A stretch of DNA of 32,000 nucleotides from a virus. The stretch is from the IMG/VR virus record IMGVR_UViG_3300045988_024411, positions 3,282 through 35,281 of that record; one strand, 5' to 3'. A program made the position numbers and the translations under genes. The notes below the pieces were generated by a model. It was given only the letters and a program-made list of their open reading frames with translations. It did no database searches and was not told where the DNA came from. Positions 1-25,863 of this stretch are shown one piece after another (positions within the stretch are counted from its first letter, which is position 1; every line of letters begins with the position of its first letter).

Positions 1-1
1 A

Positions 2-694
2 CTTCCAAATGTGACCACGTGGTCACATTTAGGGAACAGAGCGCTCTATCTGTTGGCTACACTTCCAGAGGAAGAAAAACAAGAGCAAATAGAAAAGATT
101 GAGCAAGGCGACACACCAACGGTCAAAGAGCTAGAAGAAGTGAAGAAAAAGCTAAAACTCAAAGACCAAGCACTAGAAGCGGTTAAAGGCGAGCTTAAGC
201 GTGCCAAAGCAATCAAACCGATTGAAAAAGTAATTGAAAAGGAAATCATCCCAGACGATTACAAGGCTGCGCAAGAGTTGAATAAAAAGCTACTAGCAAA
301 AAACAAAGAACTTTCAAATAGTGAGCAAGCAGCTAACGAGCGAGTGCAATTCATTGAATCGCAACTCAAAGAGCTAATGAATCAACGGCAAGAGGTTGAC
401 GAAAAGTCAGCTAAATACGACGAATTGACAAGAGCCATTGAACAGTCGCAAGGGCAATTAGACAGTTACCAAAAGCAAGTATCTGCTTACCGTCACACCA
501 TCAACTTTTTGGAAAAAGGGAACAAATTCCTTGCTAACTTTGGCGGCGTAGCGTTTTTGGATATCAAACCAGCGTTAAACAATCCGAAAGTTAGAACTGA
601 GCTTGAAACATTCTTAACTATGCTAAACAGTCTCAGCCGTAGCGTTTCGGAGATACTGGAACAAGACGACGTGATTGAAGGAGAAATCTTATGA
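2..694 (+). CDS. 5'-truncated coiled-coil early protein (possibly the C-terminal part of a DUF3102-like protein)
   Basis: The frame is open from the window edge, with no stop or SD before the GTG at 11. Stop TGA 692-694 overlaps the next start (ATGA). The sequence is highly charged and heptad-rich. The family name is from memory only. Confidence 0.6.
   Translation, partial: LPNVTTWSHLGNRALYLLATLPEEEKQEQIEKIEQGDTPTVKELEEVKKKLKLKDQALEAVKGELKRAKAIKPIEKVIEKEIIPDDYKAAQELNKKLLAKNKELSNSEQAANERVQFIESQLKELMNQRQEVDEKSAKYDELTRAIEQSQGQLDSYQKQVSAYRHTINFLEKGNKFLANFGGVAFLDIKPALNNPKVRTELETFLTMLNSLSRSVSEILEQDDVIEGEIL
7..30. promoter_or_regulatory. Perfect 24-bp palindrome AAATGTGACCAC/GTGGTCACATTT with a CACGTG core, lying inside the first CDS
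   Basis: Read directly: nt 7-18 are the exact reverse complement of nt 19-30. Confidence 0.5.
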
Positions 695-1110
695 CGAACG
701 ACATTATTGGTCAAAGTAAAGACCACGCAAGACAAGTATCGCACCTAGCAGTTACTAGAAATATGCTAGATGCACTCGAAAACCATGAGGAGCGTATCGC
801 TAATCTAGAAGACAACATGAGAGTGAACGCTGCACAAGAAATTAAATTAACTAACCTTGTCAACAGCAAGATTGTTGGATTGTTAGAAGGCAAGAAAAGC
901 AAGGCTTACCGCGATAATCATATTCGTGCTAAAGCGTATCATGCCATCAACAAAGAAATTATTAACCATTTCGGTGTGAGACGCAAAGAAATCCCTGCTA
1001 AAGAATTTAAGAACACCGTTATCTTTATCGAAAATTGGAGCTTGAATGATCAAGAGCTTAAAAACGAGATTTTCACTGCAAACCATCAAGGAAGTCTGTT
1101 TGAAGCGTAG
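691..1110 (+). CDS. ORF6C-domain protein (C-terminal domain type of phage antirepressors)
   Basis: 139-aa ORF with an ATGA overlap to the upstream gene. The block ...GKKSKAYRDNHIRAKAYHAINKEIINHFGVRRKEIPAKEFKNTVIFIENW matches my recollection of the ORF6C signature. Confidence 0.7.
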   Translation: MTNDIIGQSKDHARQVSHLAVTRNMLDALENHEERIANLEDNMRVNAAQEIKLTNLVNSKIVGLLEGKKSKAYRDNHIRAKAYHAINKEIINHFGVRRKEIPAKEFKNTVIFIENWSLNDQELKNEIFTANHQGSLFEA

Positions 1111-1136
1111 TTAGAGAGGTGTAGAAAGGAGACACT

Positions 1137-1277
1137 ATGAATGAAATCAAAATCCGTGAAGATAAAGTGTCCTTGGACGGTCAAGAGTTAAAAACACTTA
1201 CGGAATTCGAAATTAAAAGCACAACCGAGGACGGCTATGCTGAAGTGAAATTAACCTTACTTGCTAAATTGACCTGA
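1137..1277 (+). CDS. Small hypothetical protein (46 aa, MNEIKIREDKVSLDGQEL...)
   Basis: AAAGGAG SD at 1125-1131, 5 nt before the ATG. It fills an otherwise empty gap and is too short to appear in the ORF track. Confidence 0.45.
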   Translation: MNEIKIREDKVSLDGQELKTLTEFEIKSTTEDGYAEVKLTLLAKLT

Positions 1278-1290
1278 AAGGAGCAAAAAA

Positions 1291-1485
1291 ATGAATCACA
1301 TTCAAGATATTATCGAGTTCATGCAAAAAGGCCGTCCAATCCCTGAATGGGACTTCACGACCTACATGTTCTTTACATTCTCAATGCTTGTTGGAATCCT
1401 TATCTTGCTTCCTATTCGCTTTGAGAACTCTTTTGGAAAGAGACCAGAAGGCACCGAAGATAGGGACGCTAACGAAGGACATTAA
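1291..1485 (+). CDS. Small hypothetical protein with one predicted TM segment (64 aa)
   Basis: Strong SD (AAAGGAG then 7 nt then ATG). The 3' 105 nt overlap the convergent minus-strand gene, so the true extent is uncertain. Confidence 0.4.
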   Translation: MNHIQDIIEFMQKGRPIPEWDFTTYMFFTFSMLVGILILLPIRFENSFGKRPEGTEDRDANEGH

Positions 1486-1803
1486 ATTTCCAAATTGAGT
1501 ATCAGACAGAACAATCAAGCAGTTTCTCAAAACGAGGAATCCAAAGATAGGCAAAGTGATGACAAAGCTATAAGTTATATCACCGTCTTTCTCAAACTTG
1601 AAAAAGAGCAGAATGTCATGGATATAGCTTAACGCTAACATCGAAATGAATAAAGCGATACCAATCACTAGACATAGATACGTCCAATTGATGTCGGCCA
1701 GCCTAGTCAAGGCTGAATGGCTATCTGGTGTTATACAGTGGAATTCAATGTACAGCAACCCAACGAACATCAGAAAAGCAGATATTTCAGATTTATTCTT
1801 CAT
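1381..1803 (-). CDS. Polytopic membrane protein (about 4 TM, 140 aa). It is the only minus-strand gene, so it is a moron-like candidate for superinfection exclusion or abortive infection.
   Basis: GAGG SD 7 nt upstream of the ATG, and its own extended -10 promoter. Four hydrophobic stretches are visible (ISAFLMFVGLLYIEF, WTYLCLVIGIALFISMLAL, YSFVITLPIFGFLVL, LMSFVSVPIFGAFWSL), followed by a basic C-terminal tail. Confidence 0.65.
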   Translation of the reverse strand: MKNKSEISAFLMFVGLLYIEFHCITPDSHSALTRLADINWTYLCLVIGIALFISMLALSYIHDILLFFKFEKDGDITYSFVITLPIFGFLVLRNCLIVLSDTQFGNLMSFVSVPIFGAFWSLSKRVLKANRKQDKDSNKH

Positions 1804-1827
1804 GTCAAAACCTCGTTTTTATTAACT

Positions 1828-1836
1828 ATTATATCA
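1828..1836 (-). promoter_or_regulatory. Extended -10 promoter (TGATATAAT on the minus strand) driving the membrane-protein gene
   Basis: The reverse complement of 1828-1836 reads TGATATAAT, which fits TGnTATAAT perfectly. It lies about 25 nt upstream of the ATG at 1803, with a weak -35 (TTGGTA). Confidence 0.5.
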
Positions 1837-1853
1837 AATGGAAAGGACTACCA

Positions 1854-2093
1854 ATGGAAATCACCTACAAACCAGTCGGGATCAATGAGACGGCTGAGTG
1901 GGGAGACTACGACCACCTCATGCAGCGGTGGGAAGGTCTAGGGAAGTCAATGGCAAAAAACCTCATTCGAGAAATGAGGGATAACAAAGACTTTCGAGAC
2001 TACGTGTTCAACCCAACACATAAACTGGTTTTTATCAACTATGAAGGTTTTAAGTCCTTCATCGAATGGAAAACTAGAAACAGATTCAAATAA
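1854..2093 (+). CDS. Small excisionase/HTH_17-like DNA-binding protein (79 aa)
   Basis: An internal Met with the GGAAAGGA SD is preferred over the ORF-track start at 1728, because 1728 overlaps the minus-strand gene. The ...NLIREMRDNKDFRDYVFNPTHKLVFINYEGFKSFIEW pattern resembles Tn916-Xis-type small HTH proteins (from memory). Confidence 0.5.
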   Translation: MEITYKPVGINETAEWGDYDHLMQRWEGLGKSMAKNLIREMRDNKDFRDYVFNPTHKLVFINYEGFKSFIEWKTRNRFK

Positions 2094-2320
2094 CAATACA
2101 TCCCTAGCCGTAACGGTGAGCTAGCGGGGCATATCTGTTGAAAACGTAAGCAATACCATTAGCGACGATTTGATTTATAAGAACTCCTAAAAATTAATAT
2201 ATTAAAAGTCCTCGCTAGTTCTCTAGTGCGGTTAGGGAATAAAAAGGCCAACCACTGCCAGAAAGGAGCATAACCGAATGAAGTATATCTTTCACTAACA
2301 CGGAAGAAAATTACACGAAA

Positions 2321-2647
2321 ATGAACAACAAGTTCTTACAAGACACTAGCTTGAGCTTACAAGCTAAAGGCTTACTAGCTGAAATCTTGATAAATAAAAG
2401 CGACTGGCGGGTTTATCTGTCAGAACTTGAAAAGAGGTCAACCAATGGGAAAAGCTCACACCGTACAGCGTTTGAAGAATTGAAAGACAAACGGTATGTC
2501 GTGGTATTTCGTAAAAGTAAGGGCTATAAGAAAGGTTTTGAAATGGTCGTCTGTGCTTCAGACATACCAATGACAGACGAATTTATAGAATACCTTGATA
2601 AAAAGTTATCCACAGAGTTATCCACAGGTAGTCTTAAAAATTCATAG
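2321..2647 (+). CDS. Replication-initiator-like winged-HTH N-terminal domain protein (108 aa, looks truncated)
   Basis: FLQDTSLSLQAKGLLAEIL..W.VYLSELEKRSTNGKSSHRTAFEELKDKRYV is a typical wHTH of Firmicute phage or plasmid Rep/DnaD-like organisers. Its stop codon lies inside the first iteron. Confidence 0.55.
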   Translation: MNNKFLQDTSLSLQAKGLLAEILINKSDWRVYLSELEKRSTNGKSSHRTAFEELKDKRYVVVFRKSKGYKKGFEMVVCASDIPMTDEFIEYLDKKLSTELSTGSLKNS

Positions 2648-2754
2648 GTTAGGAAATTGGAATTTCCATTTAATCAAACGATGATAATTCGTAAGTTAGA
2701 AAATTCGTAGTATGAAAAAATCAAACGATGATAATTCATAGGTTAGAAAATCGG
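2639..2754. repeat. Three 22-nt iterons (AATTCrTArGTTAGrAAATysG) at an exact 47-bp period, plus a GGAAATT/AATTTCC palindrome
   Basis: Copies start at 2639, 2686 and 2733. The last two share an extra ATCAAACGATGAT flank (2673-2685 and 2720-2732). The palindrome is at 2652-2667. Confidence 0.8.
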
Positions 2755-2760
2755 ACGCTA

Positions 2761-2796
2761 ACAATAACTAATATATAAACAATAACTAATATATAA
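2761..2796. repeat. Perfect tandem duplication of the 18-mer ACAATAACTAATATATAA, with a degenerate third copy at 2859-2873
   Basis: Read directly. It lies in an AT-rich tract next to the iterons. Confidence 0.8.
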
Positions 2797-2920
2797 CAAT
2801 ATGGTGCTACGCACACTAACCAACAACAATCTAGAGCCTACCGGCACTAACTAGTAATAATAACTAATAGATAACTATACAGTAATAATCATAGTTAGAA
2901 GAATAAGAGAGGTAAAAAAC

Positions 2921-3067
2921 ATGAAAAAACTATTCGGATGGATTTGGAGCAAAAAGCAAAATGAAGAAGTGGAAACATTCGTGATCCACAACCGACCAAT
3001 GTGGGATGTTCAAATGCGTGAGTACAATCTCAAGCACGGATTACCAGAAGACCAAGTAATCGGGTGA
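2921..3067 (+). CDS. Small hypothetical protein (48 aa, MKKLFGWIWSKKQNEE...)
   Basis: AGAGAGG SD about 8 nt upstream. Below the ORF-track cutoff, with no recognisable family. Confidence 0.3.
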   Translation: MKKLFGWIWSKKQNEEVETFVIHNRPMWDVQMREYNLKHGLPEDQVIG

Positions 3068-3071
3068 TGCC

Positions 3072-3191
3072 ATGAAGCTACTAAGAAAACTATTTTCCAA
3101 GAAAAAACCTAAAGAGCCAGAATACTTTTTCGATGTGGTGGAGACGCCTGAAGAAAAGAGCGAACGGCTCAAACAGAAATATATTAAATAG
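3072..3191 (+). CDS. Small hypothetical basic protein (39 aa, MKLLRKLFSKKKPKEPE...)
   Basis: Starts 5 nt after the previous stop. Its N-terminus resembles that of the preceding small ORF. No clear SD. Confidence 0.25.
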   Translation: MKLLRKLFSKKKPKEPEYFFDVVETPEEKSERLKQKYIK

Positions 3192-3415
3192 CAACACCTT
3201 TCAACGTGTAGCCACGGCCCTGCCGTGAAGTGTAACTTATACCCATAATTTTTCCCCCAAAAAACTTTACTAAGTTACTTTTTTCCTAATATTCCCATTA
3301 CAGTCTAATAAAACATTGAAACATGACACGGTAGGGCTTGGGGTGCACGTTGAAGGCACTAAAAAAAGCACAGGTAAGGGCCTGTGCAAGAAAATTATAC
3401 CAAGGAGATTATACC

Positions 3416-5137
3416 ATGAAAACACAAACAATTGCAAAACCAAGTTTTACTAAATCTAAAGCCTATGGCTTGTGCGGAACACTAGCTCTTGCTACTGCAT
3501 TGCTAATCGGTGCAGGATCAGTATCAGCAGACGAAACTACTCAACCAGTGGCAGACACTCAACCAGCGGTGTCTAATGTGTACACAGCGGACAATTCTGG
3601 CAATGTCACTGTGACACCTAGCGAAACAGTGGCACCAGTCGAAACACCAGCGGTTGCTACAGAAGCACCAGCAACAACTACAGAAGTAGCACAACCGGTA
3701 GCTGAAACACCGGCAGCACACACAAGCGTAACTAAAGAGGGTGACACAATTACAGTGGAAAACCCTAATGTTGAAGTAACTTTCCCTAATGGAACTGGTA
3801 AATACTCACCATTCGAGGTCGAGTATAAAGATATTGAGTTTCCGGATAGCATGGCTATCAACGAAGGAGACAAGGTAGTAACTGAGTTGCCTAAAGAGAT
3901 TGGCTTGCAAACTAGCTTTGATTTCGATGTTTACAACAATGAGAATGTTGTGGGAAAAGCTAACGCCGATGCTCAAACACGAGTGATTACTACGACATTC
4001 AATAATTACTTTACTGAACATCCATTGAATAAAAAGATGTCTTTGAAATTCGATGCTAAATGGCTTGATGTCGTTGAGCCTGGCAAACCAGTGACAGTCA
4101 ATTTCGACGGTACTGTTAAGACATTCACTATTGCAGAGGAAGGGCCACTTCCAACTGATGAGCTCTTGTCTAAATGGGGTAGTCAAAATAAAGACAACCC
4201 ACAAGTTATCAACTGGACATTGCGTCTGAACACGGCTCGTCAGGTCTTGAACTATGCAAAATTGCAAGATACTTGGTCAGACAATCAAGAATTTGTGGAC
4301 GGCTCACAGAGTATCTACTTTGTTGAAGATCCTGTTAAGTGGACTGGCATTGACTATTCAGCTAAGGATTACCTTGAAAGCTGGAATGTCCGAGCAGACG
4401 GGTTCGATGCGAAATTCAAAGAGTTTAACCGCATCATGTACATTGACTATCAAACACGTTTGAAGTCAGCGGTTAAAGACTCAACTAATCCGACTAACAA
4501 GGCTACATTGGTAGCGGTAGATGCTGGGGCTATCTCAACATCTAAGGTCCAATTGGTTGGCGGACGTGGTGATGCGTCCGGTGAAAACAAACCAGAACCA
4601 ACCTTTGAAATTCCTCGTGAAGCTCCAAAAGTAGACATCCCAGAATTTGAGGGTGGCATCCCTGGAATTCCAGAGGTGCGAGAATTGCCGGAGTACACTG
4701 AGCCAATCGGCACAGTGCCAAATGAAGCTCCAGTTTACGATAAGCCAGAGTGGAACGGAGGTATTCCGGGAATTCCGGAAGAACGTGAACTTCCACAATT
4801 CGAGGGTGGAGTAGTGCCAAACGATGCACCTATCTTGGACTTGCCAGAATTGGAAATTCCGGAAGAACCAACACCAGAAAAACCTAGCACATCAAAAGAG
4901 GCATCTAATAAGCCCGTAGACGCTCCGAAAGCGAAAGAGGTAGAAATTACCGAGGTCGTTTATAAAAACGATTCTGAGCCAAAAGAGGTGGCAAATACGA
5001 CAGTTTACGGCGGTGTTCTACCTAACACTGGCGAAAAAGAGGGTATCGCTAGCAATCTTGGATTGGTAGTAATTGCAGCAGGTATCACTGGACTTACTCT
5101 TGGATTTAAAAAACGCAACGAAGAAAAAGGGGAATAA
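3416..5137 (+). CDS. LPXTG cell-wall-anchored surface adhesin, MSCRAMM/collagen-binding-like A domain plus a proline-rich repeat region (573 aa)
   Basis: AAGGAG SD 6 nt before ATG 3416, so the ORF-track start at 3338 is rejected. Signal peptide ...LLIGAGSVSA/DE. ITTTFNNYF resembles the TYTFTDYV motif of MSCRAMM N2 domains. The C-terminus carries LPNTG, a hydrophobic helix and KKRNEEKGE. Repeats of the form PEFEGGIPGIPEVRELPEY / PEWNGGIPGIPEERELPQF are present. Confidence 0.9.
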   Translation: MKTQTIAKPSFTKSKAYGLCGTLALATALLIGAGSVSADETTQPVADTQPAVSNVYTADNSGNVTVTPSETVAPVETPAVATEAPATTTEVAQPVAETPAAHTSVTKEGDTITVENPNVEVTFPNGTGKYSPFEVEYKDIEFPDSMAINEGDKVVTELPKEIGLQTSFDFDVYNNENVVGKANADAQTRVITTTFNNYFTEHPLNKKMSLKFDAKWLDVVEPGKPVTVNFDGTVKTFTIAEEGPLPTDELLSKWGSQNKDNPQVINWTLRLNTARQVLNYAKLQDTWSDNQEFVDGSQSIYFVEDPVKWTGIDYSAKDYLESWNVRADGFDAKFKEFNRIMYIDYQTRLKSAVKDSTNPTNKATLVAVDAGAISTSKVQLVGGRGDASGENKPEPTFEIPREAPKVDIPEFEGGIPGIPEVRELPEYTEPIGTVPNEAPVYDKPEWNGGIPGIPEERELPQFEGGVVPNDAPILDLPELEIPEEPTPEKPSTSKEASNKPVDAPKAKEVEITEVVYKNDSEPKEVANTTVYGGVLPNTGEKEGIASNLGLVVIAAGITGLTLGFKKRNEEKGE

Positions 5138-5139
5138 TC

Positions 5140-5460
5140 ATGAAAGAAAACAATAAACAAGTCGTATTTTACAACGCTGAAAAAGATGGATTTCTTAAAA
5201 GTTACAAAGATAGAGAAACTCTAGCTTTCGAAGCAACATTTACTGACCGTTTGAGAGACGCACTATACTTGCCAGTTGAACCATATGAAGAACAAAAAAC
5301 TGAAATCGACAAACTTGCTGAAGCGTTTGACTGCGAAGTGCTTATCGTGGAAGCTGAATACAATGTAACTAAACCTGGCGGTTCGGACTTTGAACGCACA
5401 GCGCGTGAAGAATCCCTGAAAGATGGTCTCAAATCGCTCCTAGACTTATTGACGGACTAA
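5140..5460 (+). CDS. Hypothetical acidic protein (106 aa), translationally coupled to the adhesin gene
   Basis: The ATG lies 2 nt after the adhesin stop, and GGGGAATAA supplies the SD. No recognisable family. Confidence 0.6.
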   Translation: MKENNKQVVFYNAEKDGFLKSYKDRETLAFEATFTDRLRDALYLPVEPYEEQKTEIDKLAEAFDCEVLIVEAEYNVTKPGGSDFERTAREESLKDGLKSLLDLLTD

Positions 5461-5526
5461 CAGAACTTGAAGTGGTGGGAGGGTAGGCATTAATTATGGC
5501 AGATAATCAAAAAATGAAGTTTAGAG

Positions 5527-5817
5527 GTGAGAGCAACGATAACATTCAAAGAATTTGAAGAAGTCTGGGACGAGTCAAGGGTCTTAAGTGACATTGTAAG
5601 AGTGCTAAGTTCAGCCGAAGGGAAGAACTATATCGAGGTCAAAGTTTACGAAAGTATTAACGGGATAGACATCTCGTCATCGGTCAGACTGGATGCTGAA
5701 GATAAAAAGGATGTTGTTGATCTTTTGAATAAAATTATGGCACGAAAACTCAGCAGACTTAGAGAGCAGGGTTTTGATTTTTACGAAGAATACCAAAAAT
5801 CAGAAACTACCACCTAA
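5527..5817 (+). CDS. Hypothetical protein (96 aa, GTG start uncertain)
   Basis: The only long ORF in this gap. The frame opens at 5518, and the only start candidate is a GTG with a weak SD. Confidence 0.45.
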   Translation: MRATITFKEFEEVWDESRVLSDIVRVLSSAEGKNYIEVKVYESINGIDISSSVRLDAEDKKDVVDLLNKIMARKLSRLREQGFDFYEEYQKSETTT

Positions 5818-5872
5818 AAACGATAAGAGAACCCAAAATTTGAGAATTAGGGGCATATAAAAAGGATATGAC

Positions 5873-6571
5873 ATGGAAGAAATGGAATTCACAGAGTTGC
5901 AACAACGGATGCAACTTGAAAAAAAACAAGAACGAAACGCCAAGTACGCTTCAAGGAGTGCTGAGGATATTTACAACACATTCAAGAGTTTGAAATCCAA
6001 CTGGAGTGTCGTTGTTGACTATGACTTGGTTGTAATTATGGACAAAACGTATATTAAAGCCACTGCTACAGCTTTCAAGAAAGGTTCAAGCGTGCAATCT
6101 GTGGCGTTTGCTGAGTTGTCTCCGGTGCCAATTTTGAAAACTCGCAACGGTGATCTAAAACAAATGACTGAGCCACAGTGGACAGGAGCGGTGCAATCAT
6201 ACGCTGGGAAATATGCCTTACAGTCATTGTTTGCGATTGGTGACCAAGATGTGGACCAGTTTGAAATGTCGGAGGATAGTTTGCAACAAAACCAACCTCA
6301 CAACAACCAACCGCATCAAAATCAGCAACCGCAACAAGCACACTACGAGTCAAGAAGCGATCAACAACCTAACTTTATCAGCAATGAACAGCATGACTTC
6401 ATTATGCAGCAAATCAATGAGTTAGCTCTAATTACTGGTCAATCAGTTGAAACAGTTGCTAATTACTACTTGAAGAAGTATAAACTCAATGATTTCCATG
6501 AATTGCTAGTAGCAGGATTTAACGTGGTAAGCAACGACATTCAAACACAAATCAACAATCGGAAGGGATAA
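5873..6571 (+). CDS. erf: ERF-family single-strand annealing recombinase with a Q/N/P-rich linker
   Basis: AAAGGA SD. The block ...MTEPQWTGAVQSYAGKYALQSLFAIGDQDVD resembles the ERF signature (GSA.TYARRYAL...FGI..eDD). Its position directly upstream of DUF1351 and SSB supports the call. Confidence 0.7.
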   Translation: MEEMEFTELQQRMQLEKKQERNAKYASRSAEDIYNTFKSLKSNWSVVVDYDLVVIMDKTYIKATATAFKKGSSVQSVAFAELSPVPILKTRNGDLKQMTEPQWTGAVQSYAGKYALQSLFAIGDQDVDQFEMSEDSLQQNQPHNNQPHQNQQPQQAHYESRSDQQPNFISNEQHDFIMQQINELALITGQSVETVANYYLKKYKLNDFHELLVAGFNVVSNDIQTQINNRKG

Positions 6572-6574
6572 GAC

Positions 6575-7558
6575 ATGAAGGACGTAACAAACAACGCAAC
6601 AAATAATTTCTTGGAAACAATCGAGCCGGTATATACACCGGGGCAAATCAACTTTGATTTTGAAGCATTTGACAAAGCTATTCAAGCGGCAGTTAGCGAG
6701 CTATCAGACGAACAATTGGACCAGCTTGAATATAGCGACATCAAGAAAGAAATTACCCGCTATAAAGGGCTTGATGACAAGCTAGATGCAAAACGCAAAG
6801 AGATTTCAAAAATCTATAAGAACCCACTCACAGAATTTGAGGGCAATTTGAAGAAATCACGCAAGCCGTTGCAAGAGCTAGTTGACAAGTTGCGTGCAAA
6901 ACGTGATGAAATCGACAATCACCAAGCAATGCTCCGAGCTGACCACGTTAGATCAGTCTTTGAAGAAAAGTGCGAACTTGCCGGACTTGATAAAGACACA
7001 TTCAAGGACAAGTACGACGGCTACTCTTTGAAGAAGTATTTCAAAGACAAAAAGGTGGAACTCAAGAAAGAGACTATCGAAGAAATCGACGCCCTTGTTT
7101 TAGCTGAGTATGACCGACTTGAGGAATACAAGGCTAACATAGCCATGATTGAGGAACAAGCCCTTGACTATGAGCTACCGGCTGAACCATATACTAGAGC
7201 ATTGCAGAATGATACACCTCTAGTGGAAATCTTGAAGCAAATGAAAAAGGACCGTGATGCAGCTATTGAGCGTAAGCAGCAAGCAGAAGCCAAAGCGAAA
7301 GCAGAAGCGGCACGCCTAGCAGAAATTGAAGCCATGGCTAAACAGTCAGCAAACGAGGAAATCAAAGCGGTTAACGCTGAAACTGGTGAGGTAATCGAAG
7401 ATGTCAAGCCAGCAGAGGAAGTACCTAGTAAACCCGCTGAACCGTACAAGGTCAACCTTGCCCTTACGTTCCACGGTGGAGAGAATCAATGGCATCAATT
7501 CGCTAAATTGTTGGATGATAACTTCGTAAACTATGAAATCTTAGGAGAAAATCAATGA
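6575..7558 (+). CDS. DUF1351-like protein (recombination-module accessory, 327 aa)
   Basis: N-terminal ...[23 protein letters not shown]...[27 protein letters not shown] pattern, a long coiled coil, and synteny between ERF and SSB. Confidence 0.6.
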
Positions 7559-8061
7559 TCAATTCGACCGTACTCGTTGGGCGCTTAACCCGTGACCCAG
7601 AACTAAAATACACGACCAGTAACATCGCAGTAGCCACATTCAGCCTAGCCGTTAACCGCAACTTCAAGGACGCTAACGGCGAACGTGAAACGGACTTTAT
7701 CAACTGCGTTATCTGGAGACAGCAAGCTGAGAATTTGGCTAACTGGGCTAAAAAAGGCGCATTGATTGGGATTACTGGACGCATCCAAACCCGTAGCTAT
7801 GAGAATCAGCAAGGGCAACGAGTGTATGTCACTGAGGTAGTCGCTGAGAACTTCCAAATGCTAGAAAGCCGTGCGGCGCGTGAAGGCAGTAGCGCAACTC
7901 AAGGCAACACATCGGGAGCGTTTGGCAATGATAACGGTGGCTATGCTGGGCCTTATGGTCAGCAAGCACCGCAACAGCAAGGGCCAAACTTTGCGAGAGA
8001 TAACGGTCCGTACGGGAACAGTAACCCAATGGACATCACGGATGACATGCTGCCATTCTAG
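7555..8061 (+). CDS. ssb: Single-stranded DNA-binding protein
   Basis: OB-fold N-terminus [20 protein letters not shown]...[47 protein letters not shown], a G/Q/N-rich linker and an acidic tail DITDDMLPF. Confidence 0.95.
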
Positions 8062-8072
8062 TTGGGTGAACT

Positions 8073-8465
8073 ATGAAATTAGAATTTCTATTACCAAGGT
8101 CAAAAGCTAAACCTGCTCAAAATCTAGTTATCAACAGTAACGACAGATTTCACTATCAAGCAGAGGGCCGAATGGTCAAGAAACTGCGATTGATAGCAAG
8201 AGCAGAAGCAGGACTTAACATTAAGCCGGTATATAGCCCAGATAAGCCTTGTAAAGTGCTTGTCACGGTTTATGCACCAACCAGACGAAGATTAGACCCA
8301 CCTAACCTATATCCTACTGTTAAAGCCCTTATAGACGGCTTGACGGATGCCAATTTGTGGCCAGACGACAATCACGAAGTTATCAAAATGATGTCGTTTC
8401 AGTATGGCAGGCTAAGTGGTGAATCTGGGAAATTTAAGATTGTGTTAGATATCGAAGGAGCTTGA
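8073..8465 (+). CDS. rusA: RusA-family Holliday junction resolvase
   Basis: NSNDRFHYQAEG... and ...APTRRRLDPPNLYPTVKALIDGLTDANLWPDDNHEV align by eye with E. coli RusA (SNNRYY..AEG; PDRRRRDLDNL.KA.FDALT.AGFW.DD.QV). Confidence 0.8.
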   Translation: MKLEFLLPRSKAKPAQNLVINSNDRFHYQAEGRMVKKLRLIARAEAGLNIKPVYSPDKPCKVLVTVYAPTRRRLDPPNLYPTVKALIDGLTDANLWPDDNHEVIKMMSFQYGRLSGESGKFKIVLDIEGA

Positions 8466-22234: not shown

Positions 22235-22611
22235 GGCAAAGTCAACCAGATTATGATTTCAGCTATGACGACGCAATGGCCCTCTTGATTGCAAGGCACG
22301 GCATGAGCTATGTCGAAGCTGCTAGGACAACGCTTGTTGAATTTGAGGTATATAATACCGCCTACGCTATTAAACAAGAGGACATCCGCTTTAACGCAGC
22401 TATTCAAGCATGGTATAACCAGACCGTGCAAGCTACCAAAGGCAAGGGCAAAAGTGTTCGTTCAGCTTACAGAACCTTTAATGAGTTTTATGATCATGAG
22501 AAAGAGTTCAGCAAGATATTTAAACCAGAGGACACTGTGCCTAGAAGTCGAGCGCTCTCGTTAGCTGATAAGAATAGGATCATCAATCAAAAAATGAAAG
22601 GGGGTAGTTAA
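21893..22611 (+). CDS. Tail assembly chaperone frameshift product (gpGT-like; -1 shift within 22183-22234)
   Basis: The downstream ORF is in the -1 frame, open from 22183. It overlaps the end of gpG, has no SD before its first ATG (22276), and ends with an ATG overlap onto the TMP start. Confidence 0.6.
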
Positions 22612-23255
22612 TGGGAGTATCTTTTGACGTTACGGCCATACTTCGTGCCAACTCAAGCGACTTCACCAACGGTGTCAATGCTGCTAAGTCTGCCCTTGCT
22701 GATTTAAAAAATCAGTCTGGGGGCATGCTTGCTCAAGTTGGTAGCAGTTTAAAGTCAGTTGGTAGCGCCATGCAGTCAGTCGGAGCTGGAATGACCACAG
22801 CTTTTACACTGCCTATGGTTGGAGGTTTGACTGCCGTCATCAAAGGCTATGCAGACCTTGAGCAATCTTTGGGTGGTGTTTCTACGCTATTCAAACAGAA
22901 TGGCTCAAGCGTCAATACCCTTGCCAGAGACTACGGCATGACCAGACAGCAAGCTCAAGCGCTCTATAACACTATGGACCGTGAGGGAACCAACGTTATT
23001 GAGAATGCCAACCGAGCCTATAGGACGGCTGGTGTGTCTGCTAACCGCTATATGGAGCAGGTGACATCGTTCTCAGCTACCTTGTTACAAGGTCTAGGCG
23101 GTGATACTGCCAAGGCTGCGAAATACGGTGATAAAGCCCTTGTCCAAATGTCGGATAATGCGAACAAGTTCGGTACTAACATGACGGACATTCAAAACGC
23201 TTATCAAGGTTTTGCCAAGGACAACTATTCAATGTTGGACAACTTGAAACTCGGT
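22611..23255 (+). CDS. Tape measure protein, exon 1 (215 codons). The unspliced frame reads on to a stop at 23318.
   Basis: Ends ...AYQGFAKDNYSMLDNLKLG at the proposed 5' splice site. Confidence 0.8.
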
Positions 23256-23538
23256 AGAAAAACCATAGCCGAGTATAAACCTAGTGAAAACGGTGAAACT
23301 CTACGCTACACGGCGTAGACAATACCGTGCTAAGCTTAGAAACAGGAAAGTGTAACGACTATCGAAACAGAAAAAGCATCCGATAAGGGTGTTTTTTTAA
23401 TGGAGTAGAGTAGGCTCAAGCGAGCCGAAGCGCTAGGGTGTATTTAATACATAAGAGATAGTCTAATCTCTATGGCGACATAGAGCAGTCTTCAAAAGGC
23501 GGTTGTGATTTAGCGAATCACAGCGAATATGTACCGTG
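23256..23538 (+). ncRNA. Group I self-splicing intron (283 nt, no homing-endonuclease ORF)
   Basis: P1 with a U-G wobble at the splice site, P10 complementary to the start of exon 2, a terminal G, and candidate P2, P3, P8 (GNRA loop) and P9 hairpins. Details are in the findings. Confidence 0.75.
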
Positions 23539-25863
23539 TATGGTGGTACCATGTCCGAAATGGCTCGTTTGGTCAATGAGTCTGGTGTCTTGAATGGTGA
23601 GTTTGAAGCTACGGCTGACAATATCCGTGATATCCCATTCCATACCTTGATTGATGCCATCGGTATTACTCAAGATAGGCTTGGAGTAACCGGAACTACT
23701 GCGAAAGAAGCAAGTACAACCGTGTCCGGTTCATTCAATTCCATGAAAGCAGCCGCTGAGAACTTAGTGGCCGGTCTTGGTAATAACGAAGCTAATATCA
23801 AGCAGCTCATGGATAACATGAAGCAGACTATCATCACGTTCAAGGATAATGTGGTGCGTGTTCTAGGGACTATCTGGGACAATCTGCCAGTGGACGGCTG
23901 GGTTAAATGGGCAGCGCTTATCATTGGAGCGGCGGGGCCTATTATTGCAATATTGGGGACCTTAATCATTTGGATCGGTAACGTCGTTTCTGCACTTAGC
24001 ACAATCGGTGGGGCTATCAGCTCAGTAGTAGGGTTCTTTTCAAGCGGTTCTACCGCAGCTAGCGGTCTAGGAGCTGCTTTCAGTGGTCTATCAGCCGGAG
24101 CTCTTGCCGCTTTTGCCGGGATTGTTGCTGCCGTGGCTTTGGTTGGGGCTGCACTCGTTGACTTGTGGAACAATAACGAGAATTTCCGTGCACAAGTTAC
24201 GGCAATATGGGAAACCATCAAGAGTGCAATCACTAGCGCTGTTCAAGCCATTGTGTCGTTTGTTATGTCAATTTGGGGGCAGTTGACTTCCTTCTGGAAC
24301 GAAAACCACGCCTTGATTATGCAGACAGCGACAACTTACTGGAATATGTTCAAGGGCATAATTGAAAGTGTCATGAACGCTATTCTTCCAGTCGTTCAAA
24401 CTGGATTGAATTTGCTGATTACACTGTTCTCGACAAGCTGGCAAATGATTACCACAGTTATTTCAACAGTTATTGATGTTATCCTCAACATCATCAAGAT
24501 GGGTATGCAGATTCTACAAGGTGACTGGTCTGGAGCGTGGGAAACGTTCAAAACTATCTTGTCTACTGTGTGGGAAGGTATCAAGTCACTTGTTTCAATC
24601 GGTATCAATGCTATTGGTCCGATTATCCAAGCGGGTATTCAATTCATTCTCGCTATCTGGAACGCAGCATGGGCATTGTTAGCTATTCCATTCCAAACGC
24701 TTTGGGCATTACTTCAACAAATCGCTGGCGGAGCCATGACTGCCATTAGCGGTGTGATTAGTGCCGGGATTGCCGTGATTCAATCCATTTGGTCAGCAGC
24801 GTGGACGGTTATCCAGACTGTTTTCTCAACGGTTTGGAATACAATCATGTCCATTCTGTCACCTATCATGGCTGGTATCTCAAGCATTATCTCAAGCACC
24901 TTGTCAGCTATTCAAGCGATTTGGAACGCTATTTGGACGGGGATCCAAGCTGTTTTGGCTGGTGTATTAGCTGCCATTGTCGGATTGGTTACTGGTAACT
25001 TCTCGCAAGTTCAAGCGGCTATTTCGTCAATTATGTCAGCTATTCAAGCCACTATCAGTGCGATTTGGAACGCTATCTTGTCGCTTGTCAGCAGCGTATT
25101 GAGTGCGATTGCTAGCACTGTATCAAGTACATGGTCAGCTATCCAGTCAATCATTTCAAGTGCCATGAGCTCTGTTCAGAGCATTATCAGCTCAGCTTGG
25201 AGCGCTGTTAGATCAGCGGTATCAAGTGCTATGAGCTCTATTCAGTCGGCTATCACTAGCGGATTTAGTGCCGTTGTATCAGCGGTAACAAGTGCCGGTC
25301 AGCGTATCATTTCAGCAGTTCGCTCAGCGTTCAGCGGTGCACTTAGTGCAGCCCGTGGATTCGTTGGACAAGCTGCAAGCGTAGGTGCTAACCTTATTAG
25401 CGGTTTCGTTAGCGGGGTTACATCCGCAGCCGGCAAGTTGATTTCAGCGGTTAAAGGTGCGGTAGGTAACGCCATCAATGGAGCTAAAGCCTTGCTTGGT
25501 ATCAAATCGCCATCCCGTGTATTCCGTCAATTCGGTATCTACACGGATAAAGGTTTCATCATTGGTATCGACAGCAAAGCGGCCCAAGTAGCCCGCTCAA
25601 TGCGTTATATGGCCCAAGGAGCTATTGACGCATTCATTGGTCAAGATATCAACGGAGCCATCACTGATGAACTCGGTAGCATGGACGGCCAGTTAGGTCG
25701 TTTAGCAGGGTATGATCCATCTGTTTCGTTTAACGGCGGTAAGATGTCGGTTATTCAACAAGCAGTGGATATCGTGCTCAAGATGGGTGATACAACTTAC
25801 AGGGCATTTACTGAGGACATCACTAACGCTCAATCAATGGAATTAATGCTTGATAACTATTAA
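23539..25863 (+). CDS. Tape measure protein, exon 2 (774 aa). The spliced TMP would total 989 aa.
   Basis: Starts YGGTMSEMARL...GVTGTTAKEA. A long hydrophobic Ala/Ser/Ile-rich array carries recurring W(N/S)A(A/I)W motifs. C-terminal ...LLGIKSPSRVFRQFG. Confidence 0.85.
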   Translation, partial: YGGTMSEMARLVNESGVLNGEFEATADNIRDIPFHTLIDAIGITQDRLGVTGTTAKEASTTVSGSFNSMKAAAENLVAGLGNNEANIKQLMDNMKQTIITFKDNVVRVLGTIWDNLPVDGWVKWAALIIGAAGPIIAILGTLIIWIGNVVSALSTIGGAISSVVGFFSSGSTAASGLGAAFSGLSAGALAAFAGIVAAVALVGAALVDLWNNNENFRAQVTAIWETIKSAITSAVQAIVSFVMSIWGQLTSFWNENHALIMQTATTYWNMFKGIIESVMNAILPVVQTGLNLLITLFSTSWQMITTVISTVIDVILNIIKMGMQILQGDWSGAWETFKTILSTVWEGIKSLVSIGINAIGPIIQAGIQFILAIWNAAWALLAIPFQTLWALLQQIAGGAMTAISGVISAGIAVIQSIWSAAWTVIQTVFSTVWNTIMSILSPIMAGISSIISSTLSAIQAIWNAIWTGIQAVLAGVLAAIVGLVTGNFSQVQAAISSIMSAIQATISAIWNAILSLVSSVLSAIASTVSSTWSAIQSIISSAMSSVQSIISSAWSAVRSAVSSAMSSIQSAITSGFSAVVSAVTSAGQRIISAVRSAFSGALSAARGFVGQAASVGANLISGFVSGVTSAAGKLISAVKGAVGNAINGAKALLGIKSPSRVFRQFGIYTDKGFIIGIDSKAAQVARSMRYMAQGAIDAFIGQDINGAITDELGSMDGQLGRLAGYDPSVSFNGGKMSVIQQAVDIVLKMGDTTYRAFTEDITNAQSMELMLDNY

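Follow-up and report, generated by a model that had tools for sequence, protein, structure and literature searches.

Does an adhesin that a temperate phage carries in the middle of its early genes benefit the lysogen, or does it serve the lytic cycle? The question is posed by the position of a 573-aa open reading frame (ORF) in a 32,000-nt stretch of viral DNA, here called the window (positions 3,282 to 35,281 of IMG/VR record IMGVR_UViG_3300045988_024411; coordinates are those of the window unless another record is named). The window is from a temperate siphophage of the Streptococcus salivarius group, and the ORF lies in the segment 3192–5460, which an initial annotation, made from the letters alone, had described as an LPXTG-anchored adhesin carried as cargo. 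S. salivarius ranks with the most abundant commensals in the human mouth and small intestine, and the public data searched show the gene in the majority of its temperate phages. Display of the protein, if it occurs, would mean that carrying or inducing the phage alters how cells stick to host surfaces or to each other, which would be relevant to colonisation, probiotic strains and biofilm ecology. Here we document the anatomy of the gene, the fold of its product, its insertion boundaries, the absence of detectable signals of its own and its conservation. The protein is an already annotated and very common member of the prophage-borne LPXTG surface proteins; what is added here is the anatomy of the cargo slot, the empty-site controls, and a structured leader with a possible antisense RNA. 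Our overall explanation, to which we give a probability of about 0.5, is that the gene is phage cargo in the form of a bare ORF, encoding a surface adhesin made from the early operon.

Anatomy of the adhesin and fold of its A region

The ORF and the parts of its product are as follows.

3416–5137, plus strand: adhesin ORF, 573 aa
3416–3529 (aa 1–38), plus strand: signal peptide with a K-rich n-region, a hydrophobic core and likely cleavage at VSA/DE, by inspection
3530–3727, plus strand: N-terminal region, predicted disordered, T/A/V/P/E-rich and variable in length, with an invariant VYTADNxGNV..PSET motif
3728–4561, plus strand: A region, two β-sandwich domains (Big_8 and Collagen_bind) with a fold like the N2–N3 domains of MSCRAMMs (Pfam, AlphaFold, Foldseek)
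aa 140–215: Big_8 (Pfam, E 3.4e-10)
aa 249–366: Collagen_bind (Pfam, E 1.5e-10)
4565–4573 (aa 384–386), plus strand: RGD, within the conserved glycine-rich motif QLVGGRGDASGENKP at the end of the A region
4598–5017, plus strand: SIALI-17 proline/glutamate-rich repeats and wall-spanning region (NCBIfam NF043031), predicted disordered
5018–5137, plus strand: sorting signal, with LPNTG, hydrophobic helix, KKR tail and stop (Pfam Gram_pos_anchor; AlphaFold helix)
aa 532–571: Gram_pos_anchor (Pfam, E 1e-4; 22.6 bits against a cut-off of 20)

The ATG is preceded, 8 nt upstream, by the Shine–Dalgarno (SD) sequence AAGGAG (3402–3407), and each Pfam domain exceeds its gathering score. The product seems well supported as a Sec-exported adhesin resembling the microbial surface components recognizing adhesive matrix molecules (MSCRAMMs) and presumably anchored by sortase. 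Most parts read by the initial annotation are present. The Sec signal peptide is visible by inspection, and V36, S37, A38, D39 and E40 around the cleavage site are invariant in an alignment of 30 relatives; the T/A/V/P/E-rich stretch (residues 39–104) and the proline-rich repeats lie where they had been placed, the latter being SIALI-17 repeats; Pfam and Foldseek agree on an LPXTG-anchored protein with an MSCRAMM-type two-domain A region; the coordinates given for RGD are exact; and LPNTG (aa 535–539, 5018–5032) is followed by a modelled helix (aa 553–570) and KKR. The segment ITTTFNNYF (aa 191–199), a putative counterpart of TYTFTDYV conserved among relatives, is a β-strand of the first domain (E190–195 in the model). 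The match to SIALI-17 reaches 52.9 bits against a cut-off of 30 over two stretches, the best at aa 421–450, and two PE(F/W)xGGIPGIPE repeats are represented by PEFEGG at aa 409 and PEWNGG at aa 444. In the alignment the number of these repeats differs between relatives, in frame; Tandem Repeats Finder reports no DNA-level tandem array in the coding sequence (CDS), the repeats being diverged and spaced. Relatives carry LPNTG, LPLTG, LPHTG, LPVTG, LPDTG, LPSTG or LPNAG at the sorting signal. No PHROGs family matches the adhesin. Amid the variable N-terminal region, NVYTADNxGNVTVTPSET (aa 54–71, 3575–3628) is near-invariant among the alleles of S. salivarius phages; in relatives of the Javan371 type the region around it differs. 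The RGD-containing motif, QLVGGxGxAxG, is invariant, stands in the alignment consensus that includes the Javan371-type relatives and reads LVGGRGDAIGDN in a chromosomal paralogue (see below); because the paralogue has it, the motif is an old feature of the family and not specific to phages.

The fold was predicted with AlphaFold2 from 38 sequences (the window protein, its S. salivarius-phage relatives and ~45–50%-identical relatives retrieved with the protein of the S. parasanguinis phage Javan371). Residues 100–382 form two β-sandwich domains with a predicted local distance difference test score (pLDDT) of about 80–90, and the rest is disordered except for the C-terminal helix. When the A-region model was compared with the PDB by Foldseek, an adhesin-type fold was recovered, with matches to the staphylococcal and enterococcal A regions of SdrC, RspB, ClfA, SdrD, SdrE, Bbp, Cna, UafA, SdrG, FnBPA, ClfB and Ace (E 4e-15 to 5e-10, probability 1.00, about 300 columns); for SdrC, ClfA, SdrG, Cna and Ace both domains are aligned. 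The C-terminal strands (360–379) are modelled within domain 2 and not as a latch. A search of BFVD gave one real match, a metagenomic 'clumping factor'.

In its plan (signal peptide, two Ig-like β-sandwich A domains, spacer, LPXTG anchor) the protein is like the MSCRAMMs ClfA/ClfB, SdrC/D/E/G, FnBPA, Bbp, Cna, Ace, RspB and UafA. It differs from them in sequence (12–16% identity), in having a SIALI-17 spacer with neither Ser–Asp repeats nor a Cna-B/FctA stalk, and in being encoded by a phage, inside its early operon. NF043031 itself is an annotation label defined by the repeat, which says nothing on function or phage carriage, and no mention of SIALI-17 was found in the literature searched.

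A bare coding sequence inserted behind a backbone leader

The surroundings of the gene comprise two small backbone ORFs, a leader and a 106-aa gene.

2921–3067, plus strand: small backbone ORF, 48 aa (phrog_1022), upstream of the leader
3072–3191, plus strand: small backbone ORF, 39 aa, upstream of the leader
3198–3233 and 3321–3356, plus strand: arms 1 and 2 of the long-range stem of the leader, an inverted repeat pairing over 31 bp
3361–3387, plus strand: A7 run and 8-bp hairpin (3368–3375 / 3380–3387), 8 pairs counting the closing U–G
5140–5460, plus strand: 106-aa gene (phrog_2486, E 7e-37)

When the window is aligned by blastn with locus L125, 3120–3430 corresponds to L125 6974–7262 and 5127–5499 to L125 7237–7609, the two segments overlapping by 26 nt on L125, around the SD–ATG. 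From these boundaries it follows that the adhesin CDS has been inserted exactly between the ribosome-binding site of the leader and the 106-aa gene. An empty site, in which the leader is directly followed by the 106-aa gene, is found in L125 and also in L130, L196 and L203; the claim of accessory cargo is thus borne out by sibling phages that lack the adhesin at exactly this point, and these natural siblings are ready-made controls. The adhesin takes the SD of the leader, and its last codons, at the 3' end of the CDS, supply a new SD for the 106-aa gene, which starts 2 nt past the adhesin stop codon. Judged by the features of morons (Hendrix/Juhala), the gene is an insertion between genes that are adjacent in relatives, and consensus scans show neither a promoter of its own, from which a repressed prophage could express it, nor a terminator.

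Two other proposals of the initial annotation have to be given up. The 5' region is not the adhesin's own: the leader is phage backbone, which stands directly before the 106-aa gene in the four empty sites, before a YdcK-like gene in SVep1 and before replication genes in DT1 and TP-J34. Nor is the 106-aa gene, described as tightly coupled, a partner of the adhesin; it occurs in 74 streptococcal phage records (pneumococcal, pyogenes, agalactiae, suis and others), mostly without an adhesin, and is missing from about a third of the adhesin loci. Its product has only close unnamed homologues, its AlphaFold prediction (pLDDT 65.8) yielded one good model of five, and no significant fold match was found in the PDB (best E 0.07). 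The tblastn match of the 106-aa protein to YMC-2011 and four other phages of the S. salivarius group stops at residue 89, which suggests a recombination breakpoint inside the 3' end of the gene, at the module boundary.

Distribution and relatives

A tblastn search of 50,697 phage records found the adhesin in YMC-2011, Javan534/535/536/539 and SA-TP2, all of them S. salivarius phages, and more distant copies in Javan311 (S. mitis), in Javan371 (S. parasanguinis) and in a record labelled Campylobacter phage CJLB-5; no S. thermophilus phage gave a match. The GenBank annotation of YMC-2011 already names the product 'lpxtg cell wall surface protein, collagen binding domain protein'. The protein database lists at least 120 distinct 90%-identity clusters that are 80–99% identical to the adhesin over its full length, and IMG/VR yielded 110 confirmed adhesin loci, 80 of which were fetched. 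Every S. salivarius phage matched in GenBank has the gene in this slot, as do over 100 IMG/VR contigs, and among the leader matches listed from IMG/VR 101 of 118 precede an adhesin. To judge from these sequences, it appears that in human-associated S. salivarius phages the slot is usually filled by the adhesin gene, so that the early-region placement, initially thought unusual, is the normal home of the gene in these phages. The gene is restricted to phages of commensal streptococci.

What follows the adhesin is not constant. In the IMG/VR loci with enough downstream sequence at least five replication/recombination modules are found: J536_272–DnaI–DnaC, Gam–Sak4–helicase, AAA_23–helicase, ERF–DUF1351, and replisome organiser–DnaC–RecT. 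The 106-aa gene is present or absent, and in three loci a YdcK-like gene sits between the adhesin and the 106-aa gene. The YdcK-like protein (SVep1, L008 3382–3957; also, downstream of the adhesin, L039, L078 and L080) matches Pfam B_solenoid_ydck and, below the cut-off, NCBIfam YdcK_fam, and its gene can also replace the adhesin. In Javan311 (L005 3743–5407) and Javan371 (L006 3746–5362) the related adhesin lies elsewhere in the early region, either between two helicase genes or after genes for a single-stranded-DNA-binding protein (SSB), Rep and a DNA-binding protein; such other sites indicate a gene that moves between different points of early regions. In the genome loci of the S. parasanguinis type (L093–L108) no leader pattern was found.

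Whether homologues are chromosomal or phage-borne has a divided answer. In species-representative genomes the full-length relatives (33–81% identity; hosts of the S. salivarius group, S. parasanguinis, S. gingivalis, S. oralis, S. sanguinis, S. panodentis and one Gemella metagenome-assembled genome) are flanked by phage-like genes; those of S. parasanguinis are named 'SIALI-17 repeat-containing surface protein' by NCBI. The A region alone also occurs in the chromosome: just one relative is clearly chromosomal, an LPXTG protein of S. salivarius (1014 aa; YSIRK signal, Big_8, Collagen_bind and four FctA domains) whose neighbours are glmU-like, NUDIX, nucleoside-phosphorylase, glycosyltransferase and thrS genes and include no phage genes. 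The two A regions are 43% identical over aa 105–412, including TTTFNNYF and LVGGRGDA. The chromosomal adhesin belongs to the same host species and has the domain set of SALIVA_0576 of strain F6-1 (PMC5847202); it differs from the phage protein in its YSIRK signal, in an FctA isopeptide stalk instead of SIALI-17 repeats, and in its housekeeping neighbourhood.

Some records carry host labels that call for comment. The 'Campylobacter phage CJLB-5' protein (L007, MW057932.1, 3923–5353) is a 476-aa Big_8, Collagen_bind and LPXTG protein, 35% identical to the adhesin and encoded between an excisionase and a replication gene; its Gram-positive sorting signal suggests that the host label is wrong. Contigs L091, L096, L107 and L114, assigned by binning to Prevotella, Carnobacterium and Saccharibacteria metagenome-assembled genomes, also carry close relatives of the adhesin and are most likely misplaced streptococcal prophage contigs.

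Conservation of this kind bears on two further readings of the locus. If the gene were a functionless passenger, a decaying fragment captured from a host adhesin gene, its 43% identity to the chromosomal A region and its lack of regulatory signals would be accounted for; we consider this very improbable, since all 80 of the 80 IMG/VR loci fetched and every GenBank relative have a full-length, intact ORF, since the number of repeats varies in frame but the signal peptide, the A-region core and the sorting signal do not vary, and since the gene persists across the five or more replication-module backgrounds. A virion or host-recognition component, whose conserved position would reflect a structural role, could be imagined from that position, kept in many related phages, and from the frequency of Ig-like domains on virions. 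The Sec signal peptide and LPXTG sorting signal, the location in the early region ~9 kb ahead of the packaging and structural genes, the sibling phages and matched S. thermophilus phages that do without the adhesin, and the lack of tail proteins among the BFVD matches make a virion role the most improbable of the explanations considered here.

Proposed expression and role of the adhesin

The promoters that could serve the gene were sought on a 39.8-kb human-metagenome contig, L242, which carries the exact adhesin (window coordinate = L242 coordinate minus 4585) in a prophage next to eno. The gene order on L242 is integrase, CI-like repressor (helix-turn-helix and Peptidase_S24), divergent promoters, cro-like gene, DUF3102, ORF6C-domain gene, small ORFs, adhesin, 106-aa gene, ERF, DUF1351 and SSB. 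At the switch, P_R (TTGACA-17-TATAAT, 12/12) precedes the cro-like gene and P_L scores 11/12; the adhesin lies 3.9 kb downstream of P_R. A consensus scan of the plus strand between P_R and the adhesin found nothing terminator-like, and no promoter there scored above 9/12. By the same kind of scan alone, no plus-strand promoter-like site occurs between 2204 and the adhesin ATG, and no convincing sigma-70 promoter was seen by eye in the leader loop. Nor is there a plus-strand terminator-like site in 1–8200, the gap between the adhesin and the next gene being 2 nt. According to RNA-seq of related S. thermophilus phages, the earliest transcripts arise at the consensus promoter of the cro-like gene and extend into the downstream early genes (PMC13575424). 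Given the lack of a detected promoter or terminator of its own and the slot behind P_R, co-transcription with the early lytic operon is the most economical assumption.

According to the explanation we prefer, the gene would be transcribed with the early genes from the CI-controlled P_R, and the adhesin would thus be produced upon induction, in freshly infected cells or in any state in which the early operon is active or leaks, as may be the case in plasmid-like prophages. The protein would be exported by Sec and cleaved after VSA, and host sortase A would link it covalently to peptidoglycan through LPNTG, so that the SIALI-17 proline-rich region would hold the two-domain A region away from the wall. 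The cell would gain an additional adhesin for a host-associated or bacterial ligand in the mouth or gut. The benefit may be the retention of induced or infected cells in a host-rich biofilm or, alternatively, added adhesion of the lysogen. Because S. salivarius phages usually carry the gene and the dairy S. thermophilus phages with this leader lack it, a host-associated adhesive role is favoured over a phage-versus-phage role. S. thermophilus displays few surface proteins (PMC4076053).

Classical lysogenic conversion, as the initial annotation had it, would instead require that the adhesin be made in stable lysogens, either from a constitutive promoter that escaped detection in the leader or close to it, or by leaky or plasmid-state early transcription, and that it improve adherence to oral or intestinal surfaces. 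The adhesin fold and the sorting signal suit this reading, as do the near-universal presence of the gene in S. salivarius phages and its absence from the dairy phages with the same leader. Moreover, YMC-2011 was deposited as a separate circular replicon; it is reportedly extrachromosomal, at 3–4 copies, which would require expression of the replication module in lysogeny. There are also precedents. SasX of S. aureus is a prophage-encoded surface protein. Like SasX, which is also known from S. epidermidis, and like the LPXTG protein of phiD12-like prophages of group B Streptococcus (GBS), the adhesin would be a sortase-anchored protein carried by temperate phages and a proposed aid to colonisation, a likeness of description for which we claim no homology; unlike theirs, its gene heads the replication module without a promoter of its own and is not at the end of the genome. 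The GBS protein has been proposed to be an adhesin (PMC6546898). What speaks against lysogenic conversion is the anatomy of the locus: no plus-strand promoter above 9/12 and no own terminator, a 5' region common to virulent phages such as DT1, and a position outside the lysogeny module, where conversion genes of the Ltp type sit (PMC3952083). Since the leader is shared with virulent phages, it is not a control region specific to lysogeny. We therefore regard lysogenic conversion as possible, with chances clearly below even. Constitutive expression in the lysogen seems less favoured than early-operon expression, and display during lytic growth, which the initial annotation had offered as an alternative, would fit the anatomy better. 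Phage-encoded adhesion factors made with the lytic programme are known from another oral streptococcus: PblA and PblB of the S. mitis phage SM1 are tail proteins that are released by lysis and bind again to choline on neighbouring cells. The adhesin resembles them in this respect, and differs in having a sorting signal and in not being structural.

Expression from the early operon would also suit a role in superinfection exclusion or receptor masking, in which the A region would bind the cell's own wall polysaccharide or an incoming tail and either block adsorption or injection or, in the manner of T5 Llp, save progeny from debris. The protein is predicted to lie at the surface, the source of one close homologue calls it 'cell-wall agglutinin N-terminal ligand-sugar binding', and within this phage group TP-J34 is known to have Ltp, a lipoprotein encoded by a moron-like gene of the lysogeny module that blocks superinfection (PMC3952083). 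Like Ltp, the adhesin would be a surface-exposed cargo of a phage of the family Aliceevansviridae. It differs from Ltp in its LPXTG motif and adhesin fold and in the position of its gene, behind the leader in the early operon and 3.9 kb from the switch; it has no Ltp-like domains, and no lipoprotein-type Pfam or NCBIfam family is found above the cut-off. PADLOC gave no match for the adhesin, the 106-aa protein, the YdcK-like protein or their neighbours. Moreover, exclusion would be equally useful to dairy S. thermophilus phages, yet none of those matched carries the adhesin, and the closest relative of the protein is the A region of a host adhesin. We thus consider an exclusion function unlikely.

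Several points weigh against the early-operon adhesin that we favour. The Foldseek TM-scores are low (0.3–0.44, with root-mean-square deviations of 10–14 Å), probably owing to a different inter-domain angle, and do not establish the arrangement of a binding trench. Sequence similarity to solved adhesins appears negligible: a PDB search with the single sequence found nothing, and a profile search gave a single match, to Cna (1AMX, E 0.013), with an implausible alignment; no residue-level alignment to a solved MSCRAMM was obtained. As there is no usable PDB sequence match, it is Pfam and the comparison of folds that carry the assignment. Scans for consensus promoters are weak evidence, and the variable leader loop or the stretch ahead of the small ORFs may contain a promoter. 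In the literature on S. salivarius adhesins and phages we found no transcript, protein or binding data for the gene. It is hard to see what a cell about to lyse would gain from producing an adhesin. Finally, deletion of the F6-1 counterpart of the chromosomal paralogue left adhesion to HT29-MTX cells unchanged (PMC5847202).

A conserved structured leader and a possible antisense RNA

The leader behind which the adhesin has been inserted folds at −67.9 kcal/mol in the window (z −4.69; minus strand, z −2.08). It consists of the long-range stem, whose arms enclose a loop of ~87 nt that is variable among phages, followed by the A7 run and the hairpin. The hairpin had been noted in the initial annotation as one of 7 bp at 3370–3389; it exists, the correct coordinates being 3368–3387, with 8 pairs if the closing U–G is counted. 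In an alignment (A3) of the upstream sequences of 61 distinct loci, 96.5% of the cells hold standard pairs and 11 pairs change on both sides (136 cells). For the long-range stem by itself, in the same 61 sequences, 96.1% of the cells are paired and 9 pairs change on both sides; the hairpin contributes two covarying pairs, one split 31:30 between UA and CG and the other 37:24 between GC and AU. None of 500 shuffles reached the observed pairing or covariation score, and sliding the partner by 1–3 columns reduced pairing to 30–48%. The sequences are related and most double changes occur in few haplotypes, so that the covariation represents several independent events and not dozens. In the paired columns G:U outnumbers A:C (408 against 66); this excess and the better fold of the plus strand point to a structure formed by plus-strand RNA.

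The element was found in 333 GenBank phage records, nearly all of S. thermophilus phages. Thus, it is present in more than 300 sequenced phages of dairy and commensal streptococci; it has no Rfam family (the best hit in 2000–5600 has E 0.6) and we found it noted only as a stem_loop in one GenBank record, with no description of a function. In that record, of TP-J34, the leader corresponds to stem_loop 4377..4526 and 4537..4556, which follow the annotated P_R, coh and ant and have orf9 on one side and a primosome gene on the other; the stem-loops are not discussed in the corresponding paper (PMC3952083). The virulent S. thermophilus phage DT1 has the same fold (z −7.05) with further compensatory changes, followed by orf31 and a Sak4–helicase module, and small ORFs homologous to those of the window precede the leader in DT1 (orf30) as in TP-J34 (orf9). 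In SVep1, an S. vestibularis phage, it precedes a 191-aa gene for a YdcK-like β-solenoid. The position of the leader is the junction between the switch and anti-repressor genes and the replication module. Further copies lie at the following positions.

L240, 2160–2345
L241, 2506–2685
L008, 3180–3350

Other interpretations of the element were discarded. A replication origin or DNA cruciform was rejected because of the G:U excess, the better plus-strand fold and the presence of iteron-type repeats elsewhere (2639–2890). A plus-strand terminator was rejected, as neither stem is followed by a plus-strand U-run. For arm 1, a local hairpin (CCACGG...CCGTGG) can be drawn as a separate stem-loop; covariation favours the long-range pairing. 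The long stem looks like a site of double-stranded RNA processing, and the small GC hairpin like a stabilising 5' structure.

On the minus strand, 3416–3408 reads TGGTATAAT, an extended −10 element over the SD–ATG spacer (3402–3416) that scores 10/12 with its TG. In this orientation the hairpin and its T7 run (3361–3387), 20–24 nt past the element, form a canonical intrinsic terminator. In the 6.4 kb scanned, the extended −10 and an overlapping site are the best minus-strand promoter-like sites after the switch promoters P_R and P_L. Irrespective of the gene behind the leader, 119 of 122 distinct leader tails retain the extended −10 (at least 5/6), as compared with 5.9% of shuffled tails and 2 of 122 on the plus strand, a statistic weakened by the shared ancestry of the sequences. 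A 40–45-nt antisense RNA is thus predicted from the minus strand of the leader. Small antisense RNAs of similar style are sar of P22 and oop of lambda.

Possibly, the leader, with its long stem, A-run, GC hairpin and convergent extended −10, is a regulatory RNA module that gates the replication operon of the Aliceevansviridae, for example through processing by RNase III and the 40–45-nt antisense RNA, with a preferred docking site for cargo behind it. In phages of commensal streptococci the adhesin would then have been placed under early-lytic control and serve the transmission of the phage, by tethering or clumping induced or newly infected cells in a host-rich biofilm, and not the fitness of the lysogen. 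As a whole we regard this extension of the early-operon reading as doubtful.

Other features of the window

The remaining genes of the window are for replication, packaging, head and tail, with the packaging and structural genes starting ~9 kb past the adhesin. Upstream of the small backbone ORFs lie a Rep-like stub and iterons, both of which had been noted in the initial annotation and are real.

2321–2647: Rep-like stub, 108 aa, matching positions 16–120 of the 365-position phrog_1456
2639–2779: three 47-nt direct repeats (iterons)
2759–2887: repeats of the AATAACTAATA type

In the stub only the N-terminal third of the replication-initiator/DNA-binding families is matched. Together with the iterons it resembles the rep-plus-iteron regions of S. 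anginosus and S. agalactiae phages, and the two could be a remnant, or a second origin beside the ERF module.

A group I intron (23224–23485; Rfam RF00028, 60 bits against a gathering score of 50) is the sole gathering-level Rfam match in the window. It is flanked by two ORFs that match tape measure families (22611–23318 and 23536–25863), and the tape measure gene thus appears to be split by the intron. Finally, a hydrophobic 140-aa ORF lies on the minus strand (1381–1803), antisense to the early operon, where the gene calls of the source have no plus-strand gene. Minus-strand matches of 25% identity occur at the same relative position in four S. suis prophages, and a minus-strand terminator-like site is found nearby, at 1241–1218. 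The ORF is a candidate for an opposite-strand moron encoding a membrane protein.

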